64,000 nucleotides of DNA from Minisyncoccia bacterium (GCA_046293175.1 JBKBPM010000002.1:19176-83175), one strand, 5' to 3'. Shown: positions 28,340-44,228, numbered from the stretch's first letter. Program-made: numbers and translations. Notes: a model not told the origin generated them from the letters alone.

Positions 28340-28687
28340 TTATTTCTTCTTAGTAGCAGGTCCTGCTGATTTAGCGGCCTTGGCTGCTGCGATTTCGGCT
28401 TCCTTCTTCTTCTGTTCAAGTTCCTTCTGCATCTTACCTCCGTGACGATGGAACTTCTTCGTTGGTGAGAATTCACCAAGACGATGACCCACCATTTCTT
28501 CTGCAACAGTAACCGCAATGTGATCTTTCCCGTTGTGAACGCCGAAGGTGAAGCCAACCATTTCTGGCGAGATCATTGATGCTCGCGCCCAGGTCTTGAT
28601 TACACCACTCTCTCCGGGTTTCTTTCCGGCGATCTTTTTGAGGAGCTTTTCGTCTATGTATGGTCCTTTATATAATGATCTCGACAT
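28340..28687 (-). CDS. rpsS: 30S ribosomal protein S19
   Basis: From internal Met [15 protein letters not shown]; 4 extra upstream codons in ORF track probably not used. Confidence 0.9.
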
Positions 28688-29076
28688 ATTGAGATTCAAA
28701 CTCTGTTGCGGCGAATTTCTTTGTCGCTACAGTTTCGTGCGTCGTCACGGTACAAAAGTACCGCTCCTCGCCCTCAACTTAGGCTCCTCGAACTTCATCC
28801 ACACCAGACGTTTTCATAGTTAGAATTTGGTAATCCGCTTGCAGCTGTTTTCTCACGTACGAGAAAACCCGCGCAGTGGCGGTGCGATGAGAATCCCTCG
28901 TAAAGACAGGTAACGGCCGGCCTTAACAGGGATTCCCAACATCTTTCATCCCTTTGTTTTGACACTTCCTTGGTAACAGAACGTGCTGTTACCCGAGGTT
29001 GGAACGTGGCCAATACTACGTGAAATAAGGAAAAAAGTCAATCAAATGCTCTCCACCGAGTGCATCCGCATGTTGC

Positions 29077-29140
29077 TTGACATTAATAATTTATTAAATT
29101 ATTATTAAACTACTTCATTATTAATAATTTAAAACATATT
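29077..29140 (+). promoter_or_regulatory. vapB promoter (TTGACA-17-TATTAT) embedded in AT-rich inverted/direct repeats (putative antitoxin operator)
   Basis: ttaataattta / taaattattattaa inverted repeat and third attattaataattta copy between -35 and start codon. Confidence 0.5.
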
Positions 29141-29144
29141 TAGT

Positions 29145-29393
29145 ATGTATCAAACTAAAATAACCAGTCAAGGCACCATTTCTATCCCTGCCCCACTGCG
29201 CAAAAAATATGGTCTTATCCCAGGTGACACCGTAACTCTCGAGGACAACGGTAAAATCACCATTCAGAAAAGTCCCGACTTTGCCTCGGTGCGGGCTCAA
29301 AATGCTAAATACCTGGTTGGTAAAAAACCCTTTATTGCTAAAGGAGGTGATGGTTTTACCATGCATGTGTTAGAAAAATATGGCCAAAAATAA
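29145..29393 (+). CDS. vapB: AbrB/SpoVT (MazE/VapB-like) antitoxin
   Basis: SQGTISIPAPLRKKYGLIPGDTVTLE swapped-hairpin DNA-binding motif; overlaps downstream PIN gene by 14 nt. Confidence 0.7.
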   Translation: MYQTKITSQGTISIPAPLRKKYGLIPGDTVTLEDNGKITIQKSPDFASVRAQNAKYLVGKKPFIAKGGDGFTMHVLEKYGQK

Positions 29394-29784
29394 ATCCGGT
29401 TCGCTTGATACCAATATCTTGCTCCGCCTGATTGTAGGCGATGTTCCAGAGCAAACCGCTGTTATTGAAACTCTTTTGACCAAAGCGGCGGTGCTGCAAG
29501 TAGCCGATATTACCATCTTTGAGACTGTCTTTGTGTTACAAAGTTATTACAAATTTTCTCGGGAAGATATCTATGGGTCACTCACTGCAATTGTCCGTCA
29601 CCCTAAAATTAATTGTAACCGTCGGTTTTTTGAGCAAGCTTTTGCACTATATCGCCAGTACCCAAAACTCTCACTCGTAGACTGTGCTTTAACACTTTAT
29701 GCAGAACTGAACAATGCTTCGCCGTTATTCACCTTTGACAAAGATCTGGCCAAGTCATTAGCCAATACCCAAACATTGTCATGA
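29380..29784 (+). CDS. vapC: PIN-domain ribonuclease toxin
   Basis: LDTNILLRLIVGD (acidic residue 1), ITIFETVFVL, SLVDCALTLYAEL, FTFDKDL PIN signatures. Confidence 0.75.
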   Translation: MAKNKSGSLDTNILLRLIVGDVPEQTAVIETLLTKAAVLQVADITIFETVFVLQSYYKFSREDIYGSLTAIVRHPKINCNRRFFEQAFALYRQYPKLSLVDCALTLYAELNNASPLFTFDKDLAKSLANTQTLS

Positions 29785-30383
29785 TCACCCCTTCGCATCT
29801 CATTTATAGCTGGGCACTCGCCAAACAGACTGAAAAAGTGGCGGCGGGTGAACCAAACAAGTACCGCACGGCCGCCTTTGTTCTAGGCGCCCTGCTGCCA
29901 GATATTCCAGTCTATGTCTTCTTTTTGGTCTGTGGAATGCTGCTCGGCTATGGGCACGAACAACTCTGGGATGATATGTACTTTAATTCCGGCTGGTCGG
30001 TAGCCTTTACCCTCAGTCATTCCCTCCTCTTCTGGCCAAGCATCTACCTGGTAGCTAAGTACAAACGATGGTTTTTGGCGAAGTGGGTGGCTATTTCGGC
30101 CATTTTTCACATTGTGGTCGATTTTTGTGTGCATACGGCTGATGCCTACGCTCACTTTTGGCCGCTCACTGACTGGCGCTTTGTAAGCCCTATCTCCTAC
30201 TGGGACCGGGCGTTTTATGGACAATACGTAGGGTGTTTTGACGCCGCTTTGGTGCTTGGTCTCCTCTGCTGGCTCGCCACTCGCTACCGTGAGAGCAAGC
30301 AGCACTTTTTGATCTACGGACTTTTAGTTCTCGCTTTGGTACGTTTTGGACTCGAATGGTATAACCTCATCAAATATGCCTAA
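29781..30383 (+). CDS. hypothetical His-rich polytopic membrane protein (possibly YdjM/DUF457-like metal-dependent hydrolase)
   Basis: 200 aa, 5-6 TM helices, conserved-looking His/Asp in TM segments (FHIVVDFCVHTADAYAHFWPLTDW). Confidence 0.4.
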   Translation: MITPSHLIYSWALAKQTEKVAAGEPNKYRTAAFVLGALLPDIPVYVFFLVCGMLLGYGHEQLWDDMYFNSGWSVAFTLSHSLLFWPSIYLVAKYKRWFLAKWVAISAIFHIVVDFCVHTADAYAHFWPLTDWRFVSPISYWDRAFYGQYVGCFDAALVLGLLCWLATRYRESKQHFLIYGLLVLALVRFGLEWYNLIKYA

Positions 30384-30684
30384 ACCTCGCGGCAGCGAAC
30401 ATACCACCCTCACCGAAACGGCCGAGCTTCTCGTTCGGGAGCTCAAAAAGCAATCGGGTATCAAAATGATTGCACCAGGTATCATCGACGCTAAACGTTC
30501 AGGTAAGCGTTATATCACTGCAGTCTATACTTCGGCCGGTATTCACTTTATTGTCTCCGGGACCGGGGTGCAAAAAATTGCGGTGCACCTCTCCGATGCG
30601 GAAGATGGACCAAAGCTCGTGGCAACGCTGAAAAACGCAAAAGCCCTCAAGCAGTTTGCCTGGGGCGAGCGACACCGCGAATAA
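30376..30684 (+). CDS. hypothetical protein
   Basis: About 102 aa from ATG overlapping previous stop (ATGCCTAA); no motif recognised. Confidence 0.35.
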   Translation: MPKPRGSEHTTLTETAELLVRELKKQSGIKMIAPGIIDAKRSGKRYITAVYTSAGIHFIVSGTGVQKIAVHLSDAEDGPKLVATLKNAKALKQFAWGERHRE

Positions 30685-30691
30685 ATAGTGT

Positions 30692-31489
30692 CTAGAGCGT
30701 TTCTCGTGGTGGTTTTTTTGGTTGGAATTCTTCAGTGTGCGTTTTCCAGTCAATCACTGTATCATCTACAGGGTGAATTGGATCCTCTGATGCGATATGT
30801 CTAGGCACATCTCCAGCGTAGGGACTCTTAAAAATCTCATTTTTTGTGCTACTGGCACTGCCGTCCTTGACTGAGGCAATAATAGCCTCTTCTTTGGCCT
30901 TTTTATACATATCGAATTCTTTACTTGCGACAATTTCGGTACAAAGAGTGTCTACATCAACACTGGTGAAGGTCAGTGGAGTTAATACACGAATAGCATC
31001 TTTGATTTTTGCCAACACAGCCCTTGCATCTTGGTTGTTTGGATTTTCAATGTTGACAAGCGCCTCCATCAGTTTTGACTTCAAAAAATCATTACGTCCT
31101 AGCACCAACTTTAATTCTTCCAGTCGAGATTCTGGTTCTGCATTAAAATACTCAGCAACAGCTTTTTCCATGACCTCTACACCATACTCATCTCGAATTG
31201 CATCTTTTACATACGACAGCGCAATTATTTGTTCAGAAGTTAACTTTCCGTTTCGTTTCTGTGCGTCTCTGAGAACATTTAGAGTATTGAACATACTAAA
31301 ATTAGTTTGTTCAAGAGACTTTAATACATCTGCTGTCTGCGGTGCTTGTTCTGCTTTAGGTGTGATAAAGCGCTTTACAAAATTATCCAATGCCATAATG
31401 CCAATAGTATACCAGAAACCCAAGAGGGCAACACAAAACCACCCAATCAATGGGCGGTTTTGTGTTGCTTTGAGGCAAATGAGCAACAA
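30692..31489 (-). CDS. hypothetical N-terminally anchored protein, translationally coupled downstream of rplB
   Basis: 265 aa; start 3 nt after rplB stop; AT-richer than flanking ribosomal genes. Confidence 0.45.
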   Translation of the reverse strand: MLLICLKATQNRPLIGWFCVALLGFWYTIGIMALDNFVKRFITPKAEQAPQTADVLKSLEQTNFSMFNTLNVLRDAQKRNGKLTSEQIIALSYVKDAIRDEYGVEVMEKAVAEYFNAEPESRLEELKLVLGRNDFLKSKLMEALVNIENPNNQDARAVLAKIKDAIRVLTPLTFTSVDVDTLCTEIVASKEFDMYKKAKEEAIIASVKDGSASSTKNEIFKSPYAGDVPRHIASEDPIHPVDDTVIDWKTHTEEFQPKKPPRETL

Positions 31490-31491
31490 TC

Positions 31492-32352
31492 TTATGACTG
31501 TCCGCGCATCAAGCGTCCTGGCTTGCGGCGAGTGACAATAAACTTGTTACTAAACTTCTTTGGTGAGCGAGTCTTCTGACCCTTGCCCACTGGACGACCC
31601 TGCTTTGTGCGCGCACGACGGTGACCACGTGGACTGCGTCCCTCACCACCTCCGTGTGGGTGGTCTACCGCGTTCTTGGCTGAACCGCGAGTCTTTGGAC
31701 GAATACCGAGGTGACGAGCACGTCCAGCCTTTCCAATCTTCACGAGGCGGTATTCTTCGTTTGATACCGCACCAATCGATGCCCACGCTTGGCTTATAAT
31801 CTTACGCACTTCAGATGATGGCAACTTAACGAGGGTGTACCCAGCGTCTTGGGCCACGACTTCAGCGTAGTTACCAGCGGAACGAGCGATCCGAGCTCCA
31901 GCGCCAGGCTTGAGTTCAATGTTGAAGATAAAGGCACCAACCGGAATCTTCCCAAGCGGGAGACGGTTACCAGCCTTTGGCTTTGCCTCAGTAGAGGTAA
32001 TAATCTCGTCTCCAACCGCTACCTGCTGTGGAACGAGGATATACCGACGTTCACCGTCCTTGTAGAGAACCAGGGCAATAAAGCCTGAACGGTATGGGTC
32101 ATATTCAATGGTTTCAATCCGAGCTGGAACATCCTTCTTGTCGAACTTGAAGTCAACGAAACGATAGGTTCGCTTGTTTCCACCACCACGGTTGAGAGTG
32201 GTGGTACGACCGAGGTTGTTGCGGCCACCAGTACTGCGTCCACCCTTTGTCAACGACTTCAGTGGGTTACTCTTCGTACTTGTGAGCTTCTTTTTGTACT
32301 CAATCACAGTTCCATCGCGGCGACCGGCTGAGGTGGGTTTATATGCTTTCAT
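31492..32352 (-). CDS. rplB: 50S ribosomal protein L2
   Basis: 286 aa typical L2. Confidence 0.95.
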   Translation of the reverse strand: MKAYKPTSAGRRDGTVIEYKKKLTSTKSNPLKSLTKGGRSTGGRNNLGRTTTLNRGGGNKRTYRFVDFKFDKKDVPARIETIEYDPYRSGFIALVLYKDGERRYILVPQQVAVGDEIITSTEAKPKAGNRLPLGKIPVGAFIFNIELKPGAGARIARSAGNYAEVVAQDAGYTLVKLPSSEVRKIISQAWASIGAVSNEEYRLVKIGKAGRARHLGIRPKTRGSAKNAVDHPHGGGEGRSPRGHRRARTKQGRPVGKGQKTRSPKKFSNKFIVTRRKPGRLMRGQS

Positions 32353-33503: not shown

Positions 33504-34130
33504 TTACTTAACACTTCCACGTACTTCGACTAATGTACCCGGACGACCTGGAATTGCACCCTTCACGAGGATGAGATTCTCTGCGGGATTTACCTGGAGA
33601 ACAGTGAGGTTCTTCACCGTGATACGATCCCCCCCCATACGCCCAGCCATGCGCAGACCCTTGATTACACGCTTGAAACCGGTAGCACCGATGGATCCTG
33701 GTTCACGTTCTGAGTGCTTCTGACCGTGACTACGACGTCCACCGCCGAAGCCGTGTCGCTTTACCACACCCTGGAAGCCCTTACCTTTTGATACAGCACT
33801 GACGGTAACAATGTCACCTGGAGCGAAGACTGAGGCGTTAATAGTAGCGCCTACGGTCATGTCACCTGGTACTGTTTCACCGTACGATGATTTTGGACGG
33901 AACTCACGCACAACTGCGGCGCCGGCAAACTGGCCCTGCTGTGCCTTCGCAATCCGGTGACTCTTTTGAGAGCCGGTAGCGAGCTGTACAGCATCATAGC
34001 CATCTACGGCAGCAGTCTTGACCTTGGTAATTGTCGCTGTTTCTACCCTAAGGATAGTGGCTGGGTGACAAACACCGTTTGCGTCAAAAACTTGTGTCAT
34101 GCGGTCTTTGGTTCCAACAATAAACTTCAT
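33504..34130 (-). CDS. rplC: 50S ribosomal protein L3
   Basis: 208 aa typical L3. Confidence 0.9.
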   Translation of the reverse strand: MKFIVGTKDRMTQVFDANGVCHPATILRVETATITKVKTAAVDGYDAVQLATGSQKSHRIAKAQQGQFAGAAVVREFRPKSSYGETVPGDMTVGATINASVFAPGDIVTVSAVSKGKGFQGVVKRHGFGGGRRSHGQKHSEREPGSIGATGFKRVIKGLRMAGRMGGDRITVKNLTVLQVNPAENLILVKGAIPGRPGTLVEVRGSVK

Positions 34131-34374
34131 TTATTCTGGACTTATGCTTATAACATAGCCTTTAAAAACCTCAATGACAAACCGCGCTCTTTTATGGGCG
34201 CGAGCACAAGCTCGCTGCATAAAATAAGCGCGGTTTGTGCCCATTGGTTCTCCGGTACTTACTATATTTCGGTACCTTCAGCGAACATAGGTCTTATAAA
34301 GCTAAGGAGAGTATACCAGAGACGGCTAGTTTTGCAACTAGCCGTCTCTTTACGCTGCTTATGTACTGCCAACC

Positions 34375-35049
34375 TTAGCAATCACTACCGCTACCGCGCC
34401 GTGAACACGCTCCGCCATCTGTGGTTGGCTTTGGTGCCGTACAGTTACTATCAGACACAATCGAGCCGTACTGATCACGACATTCTACCGTACGGACATT
34501 TCTTCCGTTGGTTGTGCTACATGAAGGTGGCCACGGCGCGTTACAAGCATAGGCGCCGGTTACCCACCCATAGACCGGGGTTGAACATTCGGCTAATACA
34601 ACGGTGTGATATTGGTACGTACGTCCAACTGAAGCACAGACATTAGCGGCACTTCCAGTCATTGGTCGGATATACGTACTGTTATCATTTCCATCCCCAC
34701 TCCAGTTCCAGTTACAGGTTACGGCCCAAGCTGGTTCAAAGCATTTTCCCCCAACAATAATTGGGTCATCACCTCCACCCCCTCCTGGTGCACCAGTTGA
34801 TGGATCCCAACAGTTGGCGCCGAGTTCGTCACAATAACGTGGGGACCAGGTTGAGGTAGCAGCCGCCACTATATTAGCCATAAAGTTACCGGTCTTTGCT
34901 TGGGTGGTAGCACCAACATTTATTGGCGCAGGAGTATTATCATTTGGTGCAGTGGCGGTGGGTGCAGACCACTGGGCAGACATGAAGTTGTAGCTTACAA
35001 AAAGAAGGGCAACAAGGCTAAAGATGGCTAAGGAGCGATATTGTTTCAT
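34375..35049 (-). CDS. secreted Cys-rich protein, cassette-family paralog A
   Basis: Signal peptide MKQYRSLAIFSLVALLFVS; conserved N-module ...WDPSTGAPGGGGG; 12-Cys variable C-terminus. Confidence 0.55.
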   Translation of the reverse strand: MKQYRSLAIFSLVALLFVSYNFMSAQWSAPTATAPNDNTPAPINVGATTQAKTGNFMANIVAAATSTWSPRYCDELGANCWDPSTGAPGGGGGDDPIIVGGKCFEPAWAVTCNWNWSGDGNDNSTYIRPMTGSAANVCASVGRTYQYHTVVLAECSTPVYGWVTGAYACNAPWPPSCSTTNGRNVRTVECRDQYGSIVSDSNCTAPKPTTDGGACSRRGSGSDC

Positions 35050-35140
35050 ATAGGAGTATTATAACACACACGCCTACTTAGTTATCTGTAAAATTGGGGA
35101 CAGTATACCAGGAAACTACGTTTGTGTAACTCTTTGTCAC

Positions 35141-36001
35141 TTATGAGCAAGACCGAGTACTACCGAAGGTAACTCCAGTTGGCAATACACAACCAAGACT
35201 AAAACCAGACCCAGCACCAGTTGCCCCAGTGGCTGTCCCGTATGAAGCACATGCGCTAAAATCCCAACTAGCTGGCACATTGAATGAATCCCGCCAATTA
35301 CCAGAAAGTGCAACCGAGCAGAATTTCAGGTCCTGGGCTGCGGTTGATCCACCCGAATTACAGGCTGAGGTACTACCAAACGTCACACCAGTATCGGTCA
35401 AACAACCCATTTGTCGTCCTACTGCGCCGGTTGTTGTCTGAAAACTGGCACACTGAGCATCTCCAAAGCTTGCTGGCACGAGAATAGTATCGCGCCAGTT
35501 CCCAGAAGCAGCAACTACTGAACAAAACTTTCGTGATGGCATCGGTTCTGCAACCGCCCCATCACAGGCGGTATCGTCGTTCTCATAAAATTTATCACCA
35601 GCAATGCAGCCAAAAGCATAGCTCGTCGCACCTACAGCAGTCATAAAGCTCTGGCAGGTAGTGCTGGTCCAAGACCCAGGAACTACAATCGTATCGCGCC
35701 AATTACCACTTACGAGTACTGAACAAATCTTGTACACCAAGCCGTTACCGTTAGCAGCGGTACAATTATTCCCGAGAGCATCACAGTAGCGGTTTGAGCG
35801 CATCTCCGTTGTGGCGGCCAAGATATTGGCGGCCAAGTTGCCATTCTTAGCCTGAGTGGTTGTACCAACATTTATTGGCGCAGGAGTATTATCATTTGGT
35901 GCAGTGGCGGTGGGTGCAGACCACTGGGCAGACATGAAGTTGTAGCTTACAAAAAGAAGGGCAACAAGGCTAAAGATGGCTAAGGAGCGATATTGTTTCA
36001 T
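35141..36001 (-). CDS. secreted Cys-rich protein, cassette-family paralog B (three internal about 68-aa 4-Cys repeats)
   Basis: First about 47 codons and 13 nt of 5'UTR identical at DNA level to paralog A; repeats SGNWRDxIxVPxS...GVTFGSTSxC. Confidence 0.55.
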   Translation of the reverse strand: MKQYRSLAIFSLVALLFVSYNFMSAQWSAPTATAPNDNTPAPINVGTTTQAKNGNLAANILAATTEMRSNRYCDALGNNCTAANGNGLVYKICSVLVSGNWRDTIVVPGSWTSTTCQSFMTAVGATSYAFGCIAGDKFYENDDTACDGAVAEPMPSRKFCSVVAASGNWRDTILVPASFGDAQCASFQTTTGAVGRQMGCLTDTGVTFGSTSACNSGGSTAAQDLKFCSVALSGNWRDSFNVPASWDFSACASYGTATGATGAGSGFSLGCVLPTGVTFGSTRSCS

Positions 36002-36105
36002 ATAGGAGTATTATGACAGAAAAAGCAGTAGCACGTTGTTGTTATACACAAAAACGCCTGAGAGGCGCTTTTGTACAACATTTGAGACGATTCCTGGACG
36101 TATGC

Positions 36106-37302
36106 TTAGCGGCGCAGTAACCAGCCTGCATCTGCCGCGGTAACCGGCCAAGTGTACGTGGGCTGCATATTGCTATACATACACTCGGTGAGTAAATCGG
36201 CACCTACAAATTTGGTTTTGCGCAGCGTGTAGGCAATGACCGGCGCATGAGCGTCACCAGTTACCGACTTCAGTGCATTACAATCACCTTTTTCGAGTGC
36301 CATTGGCGGCAATTGGGATTTGAGAGCCGTGATTGCTCTTGTGAAAGTTGGTGTAGTGGCCGTTTGACCAAAAGCGGTTGGCCAGAGTTGTGCCATTATG
36401 TCCGGGTACCAAGTCTTCATATTTGAATGACCAAACACCCCAGCACCATCTTTATAGATTGCATACTGGGTAGTACTGGCGTTATAAAAGCTGCCAGATG
36501 AACCACCGTAAAGCGCTGTTTTTAATACAGCGGCGCGATCAGATAATTGTTTGGCCCGAGCAGTGTCACTAAATATTTGTTTTTCAATACGGGCAGCCGC
36601 TTCAAGTCCAGCCAAGACCTCCACATTGTCCATCAGGTATTTGATAGGGTAGGTCTTTTTGGCCCAACTGACTCCGTCTACATCTATGAGTGCCGTCAGA
36701 GTGTCCTCCACATTTCTGATTGCTGATTTATTACTCCGAACAAAGGACTTACTCCCACCCGCTGTAATGTAGCGATCCACAACAACGAGAAAGAGAGCTG
36801 CTGAACTGTCCTCTGCGTCAACAGTATTACACTGTCGTTCATCACTTTTCACGGGACAGGTAGTACTATATGCACCATCAAGCGAGTACCAGGTATCAAG
36901 CGGTACCCCTGCTGTGGCATCAATATGGCGGGTATACCACTGTATCCAACGCTGGGCCATGGTGACACTCCCTGATTGACCAGCATCAAGCACACCGAGA
37001 ACTGCTAGGTGGGAAAAATATGGAGTTACTCGACGTAGTGGAGTCTCGGTCCCTTCTTCATACACTGCCACTCCATCGCTTACCGTAATTGCACCAAAGC
37101 TACTCTGGCGACTATTCGTGTATTGGAGCTTTTTAATCCAACCGACTACATTTTGTGTCTGTGTTTTAGATAGCGTGGCAGTGGCTGCTTGCTCGTCGCC
37201 GCTACCGAGCGTCAGCGCTACGACATTTCTATCAGTGGCTACATATATACCTGCACCAATGAGTGTAAGTCCCAGTATTAATAATATAATTTTTTTTCGC
37301 AT
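36106..37302 (-). CDS. hypothetical secreted protein
   Basis: 398 aa, N-terminal signal/TM, no recognised motif. Confidence 0.45.
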   Translation of the reverse strand: MRKKIILLILGLTLIGAGIYVATDRNVVALTLGSGDEQAATATLSKTQTQNVVGWIKKLQYTNSRQSSFGAITVSDGVAVYEEGTETPLRRVTPYFSHLAVLGVLDAGQSGSVTMAQRWIQWYTRHIDATAGVPLDTWYSLDGAYSTTCPVKSDERQCNTVDAEDSSAALFLVVVDRYITAGGSKSFVRSNKSAIRNVEDTLTALIDVDGVSWAKKTYPIKYLMDNVEVLAGLEAAARIEKQIFSDTARAKQLSDRAAVLKTALYGGSSGSFYNASTTQYAIYKDGAGVFGHSNMKTWYPDIMAQLWPTAFGQTATTPTFTRAITALKSQLPPMALEKGDCNALKSVTGDAHAPVIAYTLRKTKFVGADLLTECMYSNMQPTYTWPVTAADAGWLLRR

Positions 37303-37381
37303 AGTAACTATACTGTAGCATACGTACTAACATTGCTTCGCGGTAAATTTAAACACAGCACCTGCCGGCGCTGTGTTTCTC

Positions 37382-37973
37382 TTATGGTGCGCGCAATTCA
37401 CGGACTACATAGTGACCATTACCAGAATTAGTGGTCAGGGTACCAAATCTATAATAATGTCCTGGCGAAATAATAATGGTTGAACCGTTATCAAGATCAC
37501 TGTCATAGTCTTGGTAGTTCATTCTCACTGAGGTGGTAGTTGAAACACCCACATCGATAATCGTACCGTCCCAAATATTCTTATGGAAAACCATAATTGG
37601 CTGATCAGTATTATTTTGGTACCAAACACCCTGGGTACGGTTAACCACTTGCCACGTTTGATTATAACCAATACCACCCCCCGCCCGGCGCGCCAGTACT
37701 TGGATCCCAACAATTATTCCCGGTCTCATCGCAGTACTGTGGAGACCAGGCGGAGGTAGCGGCCGCCACTATATTAGCCATAAAGTTACCGGTTTTGGCT
37801 TGGGTGGTAGCACCAACATTTATTGGCGTAGGAGTATTATCATTTGGTGCAGTGGCGGTGGGTGCAGACCACTGGGCAGACATGAAGTTGTAGCCGGTAA
37901 GAAGGCTTGGGCAGATAACTAACGGGATAAAAGCAAGGGTTTCTTCATATGTAGTCATTCTATTAAGAGACAC
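37382..37973 (-). pseudogene. cassette-family paralog C; reading frame broken at a C6-G-C3 homopolymer (37677-37686); N-terminal signal region replaced
   Basis: ORFs 37662..37973 and 37382..37729 overlap; DNA 37762-37896 about 98% identical to paralog A 34862-34996. Confidence 0.45.
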
Positions 37974-38046
37974 TGCTGCGTAGAAGAGATGCTGGGTATA
38001 ACAAAAGCGCCTTTTAGGCGCTTTTGTTATACATGTGCCATGCTCC

Positions 38047-38379
38047 TTAGAGCATCTTCACATCAATATTGACTCCGGAAGGGAGTGAGAGGTTCGTAAG
38101 AGCCTCTACTACCTTTGGTCCTGGGTTCAAGATATCAATCACTCGCTTATGCATTCGCATTTCGAATTGTTCTCGCGCGTCTTTGTACACGAACGTCGAA
38201 CGGTTGACTGTATATTTCTTGATCTCGGTGGGGAGTGGGATTGGTCCAACTACCTTGGCATCGAAACGCAAGGCAGTATCAATGATCTGCTTGACTGAAG
38301 CATCAAGAATCTTATGCTCATACGCGCGAACGCGGATGCGCAACTTGTTGAAGGCTTCGGCTTTCTGAGTTGTTGCCAT
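38047..38379 (-). CDS. rpsJ: 30S ribosomal protein S10
   Basis: 110 aa typical S10. Confidence 0.9.
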   Translation of the reverse strand: MATTQKAEAFNKLRIRVRAYEHKILDASVKQIIDTALRFDAKVVGPIPLPTEIKKYTVNRSTFVYKDAREQFEMRMHKRVIDILNPGPKVVEALTNLSLPSGVNIDVKML

Positions 38380-38531
38380 AGATAGTAATTAATTTACTCA
38401 TCATAGTGGAAGTGTGCTTGGGATGCCTCAGATACGAGGAGAAACAAAGTTTTGGAAGAAGGCGTATTTATATACGACGACTGACTAAACTGAAGTTTCG
38501 ACAAAGTAGATGAGGTATATCCAAGTGCACT

Positions 38532-39725
38532 TTACTTGATGATCTTAGTTACAACACCAGCACCAACAGTCTTTCCACCTTCGCGGATAGCAAAGTTAGT
38601 CTGCTCTTCCATCGCTACTGGAGCGACGAGCTTGACCTTAAACTTAGCAGTATCTCCTGGCATAACCATTTCAACTCCCTCGCTGAGAGTTACCTCACCA
38701 GTAACGTCAGTGGTACGAATGTAGAACTGTGGCTTGTAACCAGTAAAGAATGGTGTGTGACGACCTCCTTCATCCTTCGAGAGTACGTATACTTCGGCTT
38801 CAAATTCTGTGTGTGGAGTCACTGAGCCCTTCTTCGCAAGTACCTGTCCACGGTGGATGTCTTCCTTCTTCACACCACGAAGAAGAATACCAGCGTTGTC
38901 TCCGGCCTGAGCCTGATCAAGCTGCTTGTTGAACATTTCAACTCCAGTCACCGTAGTAGTGGTAGTATCCTTGATACCAACGATTTCTACTTCTTCACCA
39001 ACCTTCACCGCACCACGTTCTACACGACCGGTTACTACCGTACCGCGTCCTTCAATTGAGAAGATATCTTCAATTGGCATAAGGAACGGCTTATCGAGCT
39101 GACGTTCTGGTAGTGGGAAGTATGAGTCCATCGCATCAACGAGTTCGATGATCTTGTCACCCCACTTACTCATTGGATCATTGAGAGCCTGGAGGCCTGA
39201 ACCGTGGATGATTGGAGCGTTCGCACCATCAAATCCGTTGTGGGTGAGGAGTTCACGGAGTTCTTCTTCCACGAGCATGAGCATTTCTTCGTCGTCAACC
39301 ATATCGCACTTGTTGAGGAATACGATGATGTTTGGCACACCCACTTGCTTTGCGAGGAGTACATGTTCACGAGTCTGTGGCATCGCACCGTCGGTAGCTG
39401 CTACTACGAGCACAGCGCCGTCCATCTGGGCTGCACCAGTAATCATGTTCTTGATGTAGTCAGCGTGACCAGGCGCGTCGATGTGCGCATAGTGACGATT
39501 TGGAGTCTCATACTCACTGTGTGAGAGAGAAATAGTAATACCACGAGCTTTTTCTTCTGGAGCCTTGTCGATTTCATCAACACCCTTAGTGGTAGCATCG
39601 TAGCCATTTCCACGAGCGTGGAGAGTGCTAAGAATTGCAGCAGTAAGCGTAGTCTTTCCGTGGTCAACGTGACCAATGGTACCTACGTTTACGTGCGGCT
39701 TTGTGCGGTCAAATGAACCTGCCAT
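38532..39725 (-). CDS. tuf: elongation factor Tu
   Basis: 397 aa; [14 protein letters not shown]-like motifs. Confidence 0.95.
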
Positions 39726-39976: not shown

Positions 39977-40303
39977 TTAACGAAGCGCTTCTAAAATGGC
40001 TGTTCGGTCTGACTCTGAAGCACTCGGGGCAGCTTCGAGGGCTTTCACTACCGCTTCGGTATCTTCTGTTGTTGCTATAGGTGCGACCTCAAGTGCCTTC
40101 AAAATTTCAGCCTGATTTGCGTTTGTTGGGGCTTCAGCCACGGGCATTTCTGGGGTTGAAGTTGATTTTGCTGCTAGTCTCATGCCGTAATAAATATAAG
40201 CAGCCAAAATACCAACCAACATGAACACAAGCCCAATAGTTATAATCGTACGCAAATACTTGGCTTCGCGTGGGTTGATGGAAATTGGTTGTTCAGGATT
40301 CAT
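39977..40303 (-). CDS. hypothetical small membrane-anchored protein
   Basis: 108 aa with one TM helix and Ala/Glu-rich tail. Confidence 0.35.
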   Translation of the reverse strand: MNPEQPISINPREAKYLRTIITIGLVFMLVGILAAYIYYGMRLAAKSTSTPEMPVAEAPTNANQAEILKALEVAPIATTEDTEAVVKALEAAPSASESDRTAILEALR

Positions 40304-40314
40304 ACTTTTTTGTA

Positions 40315-41436
40315 TTATACTTCCACAGCTACTGGTATAACCTCAATACTCAATCGTTCTTCGACAGTGCCATACGCACCCGTACAGGTCATACGTACAG
40401 TGGCAGTATTCATAATTGGACCAGTCTGTACAGAGCCACTGACCGCACCAACCGCTAAATTGGTAATACCAGGACCGTTAATTACACAAGTATTCCCAAT
40501 GAGTGATGATAGACTCCAGGTCACGGTAGCGGTGTTACCACGCCGTACTATTGGTGGAATGGCATTGAGATCCATTGTTGGACTAGTAGTACCAGTGCCG
40601 AGTATACAAATACCGCCACTAGGTATTAGACCAGCTGCACAGGTGGCACTGAGGGTAACCGCATCGAGCATGGTAGTACCACTACGAGCATGGAAGGTGG
40701 TATTACCAAGACCGATGGTTACACCAAAGTTTGTTTGTGTGTGGTTCGTACTCAATTGACTGGCCGGAGCCGTTACCCGATATATATTTGGTGAGGCTAC
40801 ACTGTTATCAATATCCCAATTAAGCTGGGTAACACAGGTACTTGCGTTCTGTGCTACCATACAGTTATTACCCCAGATAGTGGCGCTTGTGGTGGCGAAA
40901 GTAACGTGTGAAAACATATCAATCCAACCAACCACCTCACTTCCCCAAGCGTATGAATCTGCGTTCATACCGGTTGCCATATTTGATGTGATGGCATGAT
41001 TGGTGCCGCGCAGTGAAATCCAACCATCCCAAGCACCAGCTTCAGGATTGTTACTCATAGTACTGCAGGTACCACCAAGTGTCCCCGCACATGCCCTGGC
41101 CCAGCCACTCCAAGTGAGGTTTGGATATGTACCGGTCAAGCGAGCATTTTCTGCTGCCGTACCGCCACCGGTTGGGAAACCAGCAAGACCGCCAAACTTG
41201 ATCCAGCCAATATTACTACTCCAACCCCAGCCGGTGATAGTCCGGTCGGCGTTAATGGTTACTTTGTAGTCACTTGAGGCACAGTTACTATCATTACGAC
41301 AGTTGAGTGAAATCCATCCGATATTACTGCTCCAGGCAAAGCCATCGAGATCAATCGGAGCTGGAAGTGTCTGGGCATGAGCAAAGGCCGCTCCAACAAA
41401 TAGCATAGCGAGTAAAAACAACTGGTACAGTTTCAT
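40315..41436 (-). CDS. secreted repeat protein (SSNIGWI / GW-type repeats)
   Basis: Signal peptide; repeated WSSNIGWISL, WSSNIGWIKF, WDGWISL, VGWIDMF motifs. Confidence 0.45.
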   Translation of the reverse strand: MKLYQLFLLAMLFVGAAFAHAQTLPAPIDLDGFAWSSNIGWISLNCRNDSNCASSDYKVTINADRTITGWGWSSNIGWIKFGGLAGFPTGGGTAAENARLTGTYPNLTWSGWARACAGTLGGTCSTMSNNPEAGAWDGWISLRGTNHAITSNMATGMNADSYAWGSEVVGWIDMFSHVTFATTSATIWGNNCMVAQNASTCVTQLNWDIDNSVASPNIYRVTAPASQLSTNHTQTNFGVTIGLGNTTFHARSGTTMLDAVTLSATCAAGLIPSGGICILGTGTTSPTMDLNAIPPIVRRGNTATVTWSLSSLIGNTCVINGPGITNLAVGAVSGSVQTGPIMNTATVRMTCTGAYGTVEERLSIEVIPVAVEV

Positions 41437-42056: not shown

Positions 42057-44228
42057 TTATGCTTCCTCCACTATATCTTTGACACCTCTCGACTTCTTGA
42101 TTTCCATTGCCACGTTTGGTGGGACGACATCATAGTGATCGAAAGTCATGGTCATACTAGCGCGACCTTGAGTCATCGAACGGAGAGTGTTTGTGTAACC
42201 AAACATTTCAGAGAGTGGTACTTGGGCGGTAATCACCTTCTTATCACCAAGATCGGTCATTCCCTCTACCTGACCACGCTTACTCGAGATATTTCCGTTA
42301 ACGTCACCCATGAACTGCTCTGGAGTACGCACTTCAACCTTCATTACTGGTTCAAGGAGCACAGCACCGGCCTTCGCTGCTGCTTCCTTAAAGGCGTAAA
42401 TAGCCGCAAGCTTAAAAGCAATTTCACTTGAGTCTACTTCATGGAATGATCCATCATAGAGCTCCACAGTCACGTCTTCCATCTTGTAACCGGCCACAAA
42501 ACCACGTGCCATCGCTTCACGACAACCCTTCATAACAGCTGGGATAAATTCACCTGGGATCGCCCCTCCTTTGATACTGTTCACAAACTCAAAGTGATCT
42601 TCACGAGTGACATTCTTGGGCACTTCCTTCCCTTCTTCAAGTGGTTGCATTGGGCGAATCTTAATCTTGACGTGTCCGTACTGTCCACGACCACCAGATT
42701 GCTTTGCGTACTTGTAGTCTGCTTCAGCTTCGTGTTGAATCGTTTCTCGATAGGCTACCTGAGGAGCACCAACGTTAGCTTCTACACCAAATTCACGCTT
42801 CATACGGTCAACGAGAATTTCTAGGTGAAGCTCACCCATACCCTGAATAATCGTCTGCATGGTTTCTTCGTCAGTAGAAACGATGAAGGTTGGATCCTCG
42901 TCAGAGAGCTTCTTGAGTGCAGTACTCATCTTCTCCTGGTCATTTTTGGTCTTCGGTTCGACACTCATTGCGACCACTGGTGCTGGGAACACAATTTGTT
43001 CAAGAATGATTGGATTCTGCTCATCACAAAGTGTATGTGATGTCTTTACATCTTTGAGTCCTACGCCAGCCGCAATTTCGCCTGCGTATACTTCTTCGAT
43101 TTCTGTACGTTTATCGGCCTGGAGTCGCACGATACGACCAAGACGTTCTTTCTGACCAGTTGTCGCATTGTAGATATAGCTACCAGCTTTTACCACACCT
43201 GAGTACACACGGAAGAAAGTGAGCTGCCCCACAAATGGGTCAGTCTGTAGCTTAAACGCAAGCGCGCAGAATGGTTCTTCATCTGAAGCAGTGCGAGTGA
43301 TTTCCGCTTCGGTATCTGGATTTGTACCCTTAACTGCTTCGAGGTCAGTTGGTGCGGGAAGATAATCAACTACACCGTCAAGTACGAGCTGGACGCCAAT
43401 GTTTTTCAAAGCTGAACCAGTGAACACGGGGAAAATTTCGTTAGCAATCACCGCTTTACGGAGAGTGGCTTTGATTTGTTCATTCGTTGGCAATTCTCCA
43501 TTAAGATAGGCCTCCATCAAGGCATCATCATGCTCTACAACACGCTCAATGAGCTCGGCGCGGTACATTTCTGCATCATCCTTAAGCTCGGTCGGAATCT
43601 CATGCTCCACAATTTTAGTACCCATTTCTCCTTCGAAGGTATATGCCTTCATGCGGATAAGATCTACAACACCTTTGAAGTGTTCTTCCGCACCCCAGGG
43701 AAGTTGTACTCGTACGGCCTTCTTTGAAAGTCGGTCAAGAATACTGGCATATGACTTCTCAAATGATGCACCCATACGGTCCATCTTGTTGATGAAACAG
43801 AGACGAGGCACTTTCGCTTCGTCGGCGTAACCCCAGTTGGTTTCAGACTGTGGTTCTACTCCAGCTACTGAGTCAAATACGACGACAGCACCATCAAGTA
43901 CACGCATTGAACGCTTTACTTCAGCGGTGAAATCGATGTGACCGGGTGTGTCGATAATGTTAAAGGTGTACATCTGTGACTTGTCTTTACGATCAGTCAC
44001 ATCTGATTTTGACCAGTTACAAGAAATCGCGGCCGCGGTAATGGTGATACCACGTTCACGTTCCTGTTCCATCCAGTCGGTTACCGTCGCACCATCATGC
44101 ACTTCACCAATCTTATGTGACATACCGGTATAGAAAAGCACGCGCTCTGAGGTAGTAGTTTTACCAGCATCAACGTGCGCAACAATACCGAAGTTACGCA
44201 TTCTATTAATAGGAAATTCTCGGGCCAT
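42057..44228 (-). CDS. fusA: elongation factor G
   Basis: 723 aa; [10 protein letters not shown]-domain. Confidence 0.95.

Follow-up and report, generated by a model that had tools for sequence, protein, structure and literature searches.

Two single-base indels in a modular exported-protein cassette of the S10 operon: a probable recent pseudogene

Cassette C, a minus-strand gene within the window (the whole 64-kb stretch of DNA that was analysed), carries two single-base indels and is probably a recently inactivated copy, a pseudogene, of a gene encoding a modular exported protein. When intact, its product would begin with a signal peptide or anchor, continue through a conserved N-module (~70 aa) and a Gly linker, and end in a beta-sandwich that resembles phage tail-fibre tips. 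Owing to a 1-nt deletion at codon 3, the native, probably leaderless, start now reads MKKPLLLSR followed by a stop, while a slippage-type +1 insertion in the linker (G5 to G6) uncouples the C-terminal domain. With N-modules that appear to be homogenised by gene conversion and a surrounding island whose gene content appears to turn over, the loss of one cassette by frameshift would be an expected event of birth-and-death turnover. An earlier note on this DNA had described the linker frameshift as possible phase variation, with simple pseudogenisation or a sequencing indel as alternatives; the second frameshift, at the 5' end of the gene, was absent from it. Simple pseudogenisation gives the best fit to the two frameshifts and to the intact orthologues, and the locus is considered to be non-functional rather than switchable.

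Two frameshifts in cassette C

The frame break was confirmed at 37677-37686, in the C6-G-C3 sequence where the earlier note had placed it. On the plus strand the window reads CCCCCC (37677-37682), G (37683) and CCC (37684-37686), and the mRNA sense is ...GGC GCG CCG GGC GGG GGG TGG TAT TGG TTA TAA. The homopolymer encodes the Gly linker GAPGGG, as had been stated, and the upstream ORF ends ...GAPGGGWYWL* (3' end, ...CWDPSTGAPGGGWYWL*). Relative to the inferred G5 state, GGC GGG GGT GGT ATT GGT, the G6 run is a +1 insertion. The 98 aa of ACK4SL_03725 in the NCBI annotation are the residues of the upstream ORF counted from the ATG at 37958. In the +1 frame, the downstream ORF includes ...GGGIGYNQTWQVV... 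and ...GGGIGYNQTWQVVNRTQGVWYQ... and extends to 37382. It opens with ~17 codons (MRPGIIVGIQVLARRAG) that read through the N-module out of frame, and the codons from ~37676 down encode the C-terminal beta-sandwich, tail-fibre-tip-like domain. When the tract length was altered in silico, a single ORF was restored by G5 or G8 and not by G4, G7 or G9. The linker peptide would be ...GAPGGGGIGYNQTW... in a full-length product versus ...GGGWYWL in a truncated product.

Table 1. Features of cassette C and its surroundings (window coordinates)
Feature	Position	Strand	Remark
rplC (L3), downstream border of island	33504..34130	-	in-frame G8
Paralog A, ACK4SL_03705, 224 aa, intact	34375..35049	-	N-module, Gly linker, Cys-rich C-terminus
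Paralog B, ACK4SL_03710, 286 aa, intact	35141..36001	-	N-module, then three ~67-aa Cys-containing repeats
398-aa membrane-anchored protein, family not assigned	36106..37302	-	adjoins C-type gene also in L002 and L009 lineages
Downstream ORF of cassette C	37382..37729	-	annotated ACK4SL_03720 (115 aa)
Upstream ORF of cassette C, signal-peptide/anchor segment and shared N-module	37662..37973	-	terminates ...GAPGGGWYWL*
G6 run (C6 on plus strand), Gly-linker codons	37677..37682	-	frameshift 2
Gene-conversion patch	37750..37896	-	~145 nt, 93-100 % identical to paralog A (34778-34994 region)
Frameshift 1, 1-nt deletion at codon 3	~37940..37942	-	alignment with orthologues
Ancestral start ATG	37946..37948	-	reads MKKPLLLSR (nine codons), then TAG 37919-37921
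-10-like box TAGAAT	37957..37962	-	8 nt upstream of ancestral ATG, read directly
GC-rich hairpin and T-run	38001..38027	-	after rpsJ, immediately upstream of cassette C
rpsJ (S10), upstream border of island	38047..38379	-	

The homopolymer itself did not prove to be a remarkable tract. CCCCCC was matched 11 times in the 64-kb window compared with 18.7 +/- 5 times in shuffles, so that G6/C6 runs are not enriched, and the 6-nt tract of cassette C is shorter than an in-frame G8 inside the intact, essential rplC. This G8 (C8 on the plus strand, 33629-33636), located in the segment encoding GFGGGRR, is the longest G/C run of the window. All nine G/C runs of at least 6 nt in the window are C on the plus strand and G in genes that lie mostly on the minus strand.

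The second lesion is located at codon 3, outside any G/C run, where the window has ATGAAGAA-ACCCTT versus ATGAAAAATACCCTC in the orthologues (aligned at the deletion itself, ATGAAAAATACC in orthologues versus ATGAAGAA-ACC in the window). Orthologues begin with ATG AAA AAT ACC CTC (MKNTL...), whereas the window has ATG AAG AA-A CCC TTG. An ORF from the ancestral ATG needs a double repair, consisting of one additional base at the 5' site and a change of G6 to G5 or G8; the doubly repaired ORF has 187-188 aa, begins MKKTLAFIPLVICPSLLTGYNFMSAQW... and is collinear with the orthologues (188-189 aa). Because the second frameshift disables the ancestral ATG, a change in tract length alone cannot restore the native protein. 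The indels are -1 and +1, such that the ancestral ATG and the C-domain share a frame and the intervening N-module does not. A compensated frameshift from the ancestral ATG was ruled out by three stops in between, and the -1/+1 pairing is probably a coincidence, expected for roughly 1 in 2 pairs of +/-1 indels.

Formally, the codon-3 lesion could be bypassed through an alternative in-frame ATG at 37956-37958 (MTTYEETLAF...), which is located 10 nt upstream of the ancestral ATG and is used by NCBI, leaving the G run as the sole block. This bypass is disfavoured. No other in-frame ATG precedes the signal-peptide segment, but the alternative ATG overlaps the TAGAAT box and its N-terminus, MTTYEET, is acidic whereas every orthologue starts with a basic MKN or MKR. 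The 8-nt spacing between box and ancestral ATG in cassette C matches that of paralogs A and B (TATAAT and CATAAT). Upstream regions were compared for 18 genes from the window and from three related loci (L002, L006 and L009), and a TAnAAT-type box was present 5-10 nt before the ATG in 15 of the 18, including every N-module cassette gene; the boxed cassette genes have no Shine-Dalgarno sequence. The exceptions were three 397/398-aa genes (TATAGT) and L002_4808, which has no such box and whose start follows the preceding gene's stop by 2 nt. A generic consensus promoter scan did not call the -10-like boxes of the cassettes. Their conservation suggests that the boxes may be functional -10 elements of leaderless or near-leaderless transcripts, in which case the alternative ATG would not be transcribed from the cassette's own promoter.

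Both indels occur in short runs (A3/A4 and G5/G6) of a gene that is otherwise undecayed, as they would if the true gene were intact and both were homopolymer errors of sequencing or assembly. Such an artefact is, however, highly improbable. Two independently built Logan contigs of run SRR31360863 reproduce both sites exactly: L001 is 100 % identical to window positions 35985-37791 (1807 bp) and covers the G6 tract, while L020 is 100 % identical to positions 37865-38997 (1133 bp) and covers the 5' deletion. The recurrence of both indels, base for base, in two independent contigs makes an assembly artefact unlikely. G6 was the only tract length in the Logan contigs covering this site. Both contigs terminate within the sequence that cassette C shares with paralog A, where a de Bruijn graph is expected to break, rather than at the indels. 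Had the de Bruijn path through this N-module been chimeric, it would not have introduced indels 50-70 nt outside the patch (Table 1). The window contains more than 90 other homopolymers of at least 6 nt, and neighbouring syntenic genes have lengths equal or nearly equal to those of relatives (tuf, 397 aa; rpsJ, 110 aa; the 398-aa gene; rplC, 208 aa, intact with its G8; rplB, 286 aa; rplW; fusA; and genes for 373- and 108-aa proteins). This agreement indicates that the assembly is not indel-prone. At the contig level both lesions appear to be real, an assembly error being unlikely, and the suggestion of a sequencing indel is disfavoured.

Orthologues and alternative readings of the G6 tract

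Approximately 12 distinct intact, one-frame C-type alleles, with products of 188-334 aa, were identified in related Patescibacteria. The encoding DNA was compared for ~20 loci, representing ~12 distinct alleles (L002-L019 and L021-L023), and at every compared locus the N-module and the C-domain were in one frame; only the window allele was broken. P0001 (189 aa) is 80 % identical to repaired C, P0002-P0005 and P0009 have 188-191 aa, and longer C-type orthologues have a thrombospondin type-1 (TSP1) tail in addition. Scans of metagenome and genome collections and look-ups via the 398-aa neighbour yielded no allele with more than 80 % aa identity; the further alleles were more distant and intact. 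The downstream ORF does continue a homologous protein, as the earlier note had proposed, with respect to orthologues of other genomes but not to paralog A or paralog B, each of which has an unrelated C-terminal domain.

The linker is not a conserved tract. Linker codons vary by lineage (GGCGGCGGGGGAGAT, GGTGGTGGGGGAGGT, GGAGGCGGTGGAGAC and GGTGGCGGGGGTGGTGTT), with relatives having GGCGGGGGAGAT, GGTGGGGGAGGT or GGCGGGGGTGGT (G5) and otherwise interrupted codons. G runs in the linkers of relatives range from 0 to 5 and never reach 6, without conservation of any long tract. From CWDP to QTW, relatives with the CWDP motif have 63 or 66 nt, compared with 61 nt in the window. The simplest ancestral state of the window allele is G5, which makes the lesion a +1 insertion of the slippage type. 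Paralog A (224 aa) was correctly described in the earlier note as intact but its linker, CCA GGA GGG GGT GGA GGT, is not free of runs, since it contains G5.

The C-domain frame is stop-free over 115 codons. Comparison of the C-domain with that of the nearest orthologue (L002) gave a pN of 0.084, a pS of ~0.7 and a dN/dS of ~0.04 with dS saturated. As synonymous sites are saturated against every relative, dN/dS cannot reveal a recent relaxation. The lack of further decay in the C-domain implies that any inactivation was very recent, and the undecayed domain is equally compatible with a reversible switch.

In such a switch, G6 would be the OFF state of a slipped-strand contingency locus starting at the ATG at 37956-37958, with G5 and G8 as ON states. 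The break is located exactly in a homopolymer of a gene for an exported and variable protein, it is of the +1 slippage type and G5 or G8 restores the frame, while the C-domain is undecayed and the upstream in-frame ATG exists and is used in the NCBI annotation. Phase variation, the explanation raised in the earlier note, is nevertheless unlikely. Characterised poly-G/C switches, such as those of Campylobacter, Neisseria and Haemophilus loci, usually have runs of at least 7-8 nt, compared with 6 nt in cassette C, and the window shows no excess of runs of this kind (11 versus 18.7 expected) and has a longer G8 in essential rplC. Each relative has its own codons for the linker, where runs span 0-5, and the ~12 orthologue alleles are all in frame and hence ON. 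Furthermore, a frameshift outside G/C runs removes the native start, the substitute ATG overlaps the conserved -10-like box and would give an acidic n-region, and the Logan contigs show only G6. The more extensive proposal that G6 is a working switch of a tail-fibre-like attachment protein, among leaderless and individually terminated cassettes of the S10 operon in CPR/Patescibacteria, is quite unlikely.

A further alternative is that the gene has been split and its fragments are in use, with the 98-aa N-module product and/or the 115-aa C-domain product being functional, for example as a filler or decoy subunit. Both ORFs are annotated as proteins, and short proteins consisting of the N-module only are present among 655 clusters sharing this module (for example P0052, 93 aa; P0126, 98 aa; and P0170, 99 aa), but many of the short proteins in the database themselves resemble frameshift tails or truncations at contig ends. 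The 115-aa ORF lacks a signal peptide, its ATG is preceded by neither a -10 box nor a Shine-Dalgarno sequence, and codons 1-17 are N-module sequence read out of frame, while the 98-aa ORF relies on a doubtful ATG and ends in the frameshift tail WYWL. Functional split products are consequently regarded as very unlikely.

Production of the full-length protein by recoding, either through a programmed +1 ribosomal frameshift or through transcriptional slippage on GGG GGG, is extremely improbable. The GGG-GGG sequence permits perfect re-pairing of tRNA-Gly in the +1 frame and a 0-frame stop follows five codons later. However, the site is not conserved, with all orthologues in frame, no stop or rare codon directly follows the slippery codon, and the 5' frameshift would require a second recoding event. 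No stimulatory RNA structure was detected downstream of the tract, where the RNA is no more structured than shuffles (z = +1.3).

Protein family and cassette island

Searches of Pfam, NCBIfam and PDB sequences with paralogs A and B, repaired C and the 398-aa protein produced nothing above threshold. The family is undescribed, as neither its N-module nor its C-domain is represented in Pfam or NCBIfam. For the intact orthologue P0001, AlphaFold2 gave a monomer model with an N-terminal helix at residues 2-24, corresponding to a signal peptide or anchor, an N-module of low confidence at residues 25-92 and a confident beta-sandwich at residues 100-189 (pLDDT ~88). In a Foldseek search of BFVD, the C-domain matched the C-termini of tail fibres from Achromobacter, Acinetobacter, Agrobacterium and Edwardsiella phages (E 1.7e-6 to 1e-2). 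Foldseek against PDB gave no significant match, and the weak cupin/jelly-roll matches (best E 0.036) were not used for naming. PHROG families 18834, 14531 and 33574 matched at the C-terminal ends of ~340-aa phage proteins (E down to 3e-6). One sister cassette in L002 carries Peptidase_S74, a tail-fibre chaperone domain (phrog_8215, E 1.5e-40), and other sister cassettes carry TSP1 domains.

The N-module alone retrieved the 655 clusters mentioned above (50 % identity representatives, E <= 1e-3). Among the best 150 of these 655 matches, the N-module was at or within ~40 residues of the N-terminus in all but one (6785 aa), and the parts C-terminal to it were very unequal in length. Judged by this arrangement, family members seem to combine one common module, for export or anchoring, with binding tips that can be exchanged. 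The C-type protein is predicted to be exported and may act in adhesion or receptor binding. Short members of the N-module family, such as P0052, P0110 and P0089, end at or soon after the linker, and the tails of some look out of frame (P0110, ...YCDALGTTALRLQAPARVV...). These short members may be further frameshifted copies or truncations due to contig ends or sequencing.

The name 'thrombospondin type-1' and PF19030 belong to the related cassette proteins P0013, P0026 and P0027, and no TSP1 match was obtained for paralog A itself or for its cluster. Paralog B contains, at 35274-35708, three tandem units of ~201-204 nt (~67 aa) with the motif K(I/F)CSV..SGNWRD...VP.S, for which no Pfam family match was found.

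Over its whole length, the N-module of cassette C has 93 % nucleotide identity to that of paralog A versus 68-73 % to those of C-type orthologues. The patch at 37750-37896, whose counterpart in paralog A is 34850-34994, is only 63-80 % identical to the orthologue, and cassette C is orthologue-like outside it, both in the promoter and signal-peptide segment (37897-38000) and from 37750 downstream. This mosaic indicates that the N-module has recently undergone gene conversion within the genome, a form of concerted evolution. The possibility that the indels are the edges of the converted patch was ruled out by their positions, ~50 nt upstream and ~70 nt downstream of it.

The rpsJ-rplC junction, which is normally contiguous, holds an island (34131-38046 in the window) with three to five exported-protein genes in the window, L002, L006 and L009. 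The island proteins have a common N-module and differing C-termini (tail-fibre-tip-like, Peptidase_S74, TSP1 or Cys-rich repeats). The order in the window is rpsJ, C (broken), 398-aa gene, B, A and rplC; in L002 it is rpsJ, 192, 200 (S74), 372, C-type, 398, A-type...; in L006 it is rpsJ, 184, 149, C-type, A-type and rplC; and in L009 it is rpsJ, 260 (C-type plus TSP1), 191, C-type, 397 and rplC. The island gene set differs in every related genome compared, which points to rapid turnover. L009 also has an A-type cassette between rplB and rpsS, and cassettes therefore appear to move between the two sites. In the window, this second insertion site (28700-31490) lies between rpsS (28340-28699) and rplB (31492-32352) and holds a 265-aa ORF of no assigned family (30692-31489, minus strand), a PIN-domain gene (29380-29784, plus strand) and a gene for a YdjM-like membrane protein (29781-30383, plus strand). 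Between fusA (42057-44228) and tuf (38532-39725), positions 39977-41436 hold two genes for proteins of 373 and 108 aa with no assigned family, either secreted or membrane-bound, and both genes are conserved at this place in L002 and L006.

Cassettes share an upstream layout consisting of a GC hairpin with a T-run (GCGCC...GGCGCTTTTGT), a GTACCCA-like box and, ~30 nt further on, the TAnAAT box. This layout was read at window positions 35050-35120, 36002-36100 and 37949-38030 and at the equivalent positions of L002, L006 and L009. A hairpin similar to the one upstream of cassette C is located at 36048-36074; a generic terminator scan found only one of the hairpins. The layout suggests that the cassettes could be autonomous transcription units of the leaderless type inside the ribosomal operon.

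Significance and comparison with known systems

The public annotation is corrected by these findings, as ACK4SL_03720 and ACK4SL_03725 are the halves of one disrupted gene and not two hypothetical proteins. The frameshift itself is ordinary, representing one decayed copy in a fast-evolving family, and the cassette island is of more value. In the Paceibacteria analysed here, genes for a variable set of exported proteins occupy the rpsJ-rplC interval and, a second time, the rplB-rpsS interval. For organisms thought to be attached to host cells, the cassette repertoire could plausibly determine the specificity of attachment. The repertoire would evolve as cassettes are gained, lost and subjected to gene conversion, a process of which pseudogene C would be a snapshot. 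A literature search for phase variation or tail-fibre adhesins in Patescibacteria/CPR found nothing relevant; if the switch were true, no earlier report of a phase-variable surface protein from this episymbiotic radiation would exist, as far as the literature searched goes.

Among known systems, the programmed +1 frameshift of prfB (RF2) resembles cassette C in that a +1 shift would be needed shortly before a 0-frame stop. Cassette C differs from it in having no conserved arrangement of slippery codon and stop, no conservation among orthologues and no stimulatory element. Simple-sequence contingency loci include the poly-G genes of Campylobacter jejuni, pilC of Neisseria and lic/lgt of Haemophilus. 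Cassette C shares with these loci an intragenic G run, a variable exported protein, a +1 change of the slippage type and restoration of the downstream frame by -1 or +2, but its run has only 6 nt, is neither conserved nor long in relatives and is not enriched, and there is a second frameshift, outside any repeat, at the start codon.

Receptor-binding tips of phage tail fibres and Peptidase_S74 fibres are similar to the C-domain in the matches of its model to BFVD and of its sequence to PHROG C-termini, and an S74 domain is present in a sister cassette. The cassette gene is, in contrast, chromosomal, with no phage genes nearby and no significant PDB match, and its C-domain follows a cellular signal peptide and N-module in place of a fibre shaft. 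Frameshift pseudogenes of multigene families encoding surface or exported proteins are like cassette C in that the frame is lost relative to intact orthologues, more than one lesion is present, the content of the locus varies between genomes and paralogs exchange sequence. Cassette C differs from these in belonging to an undescribed family and in its unusual place within the S10 ribosomal-protein operon of a CPR bacterium.
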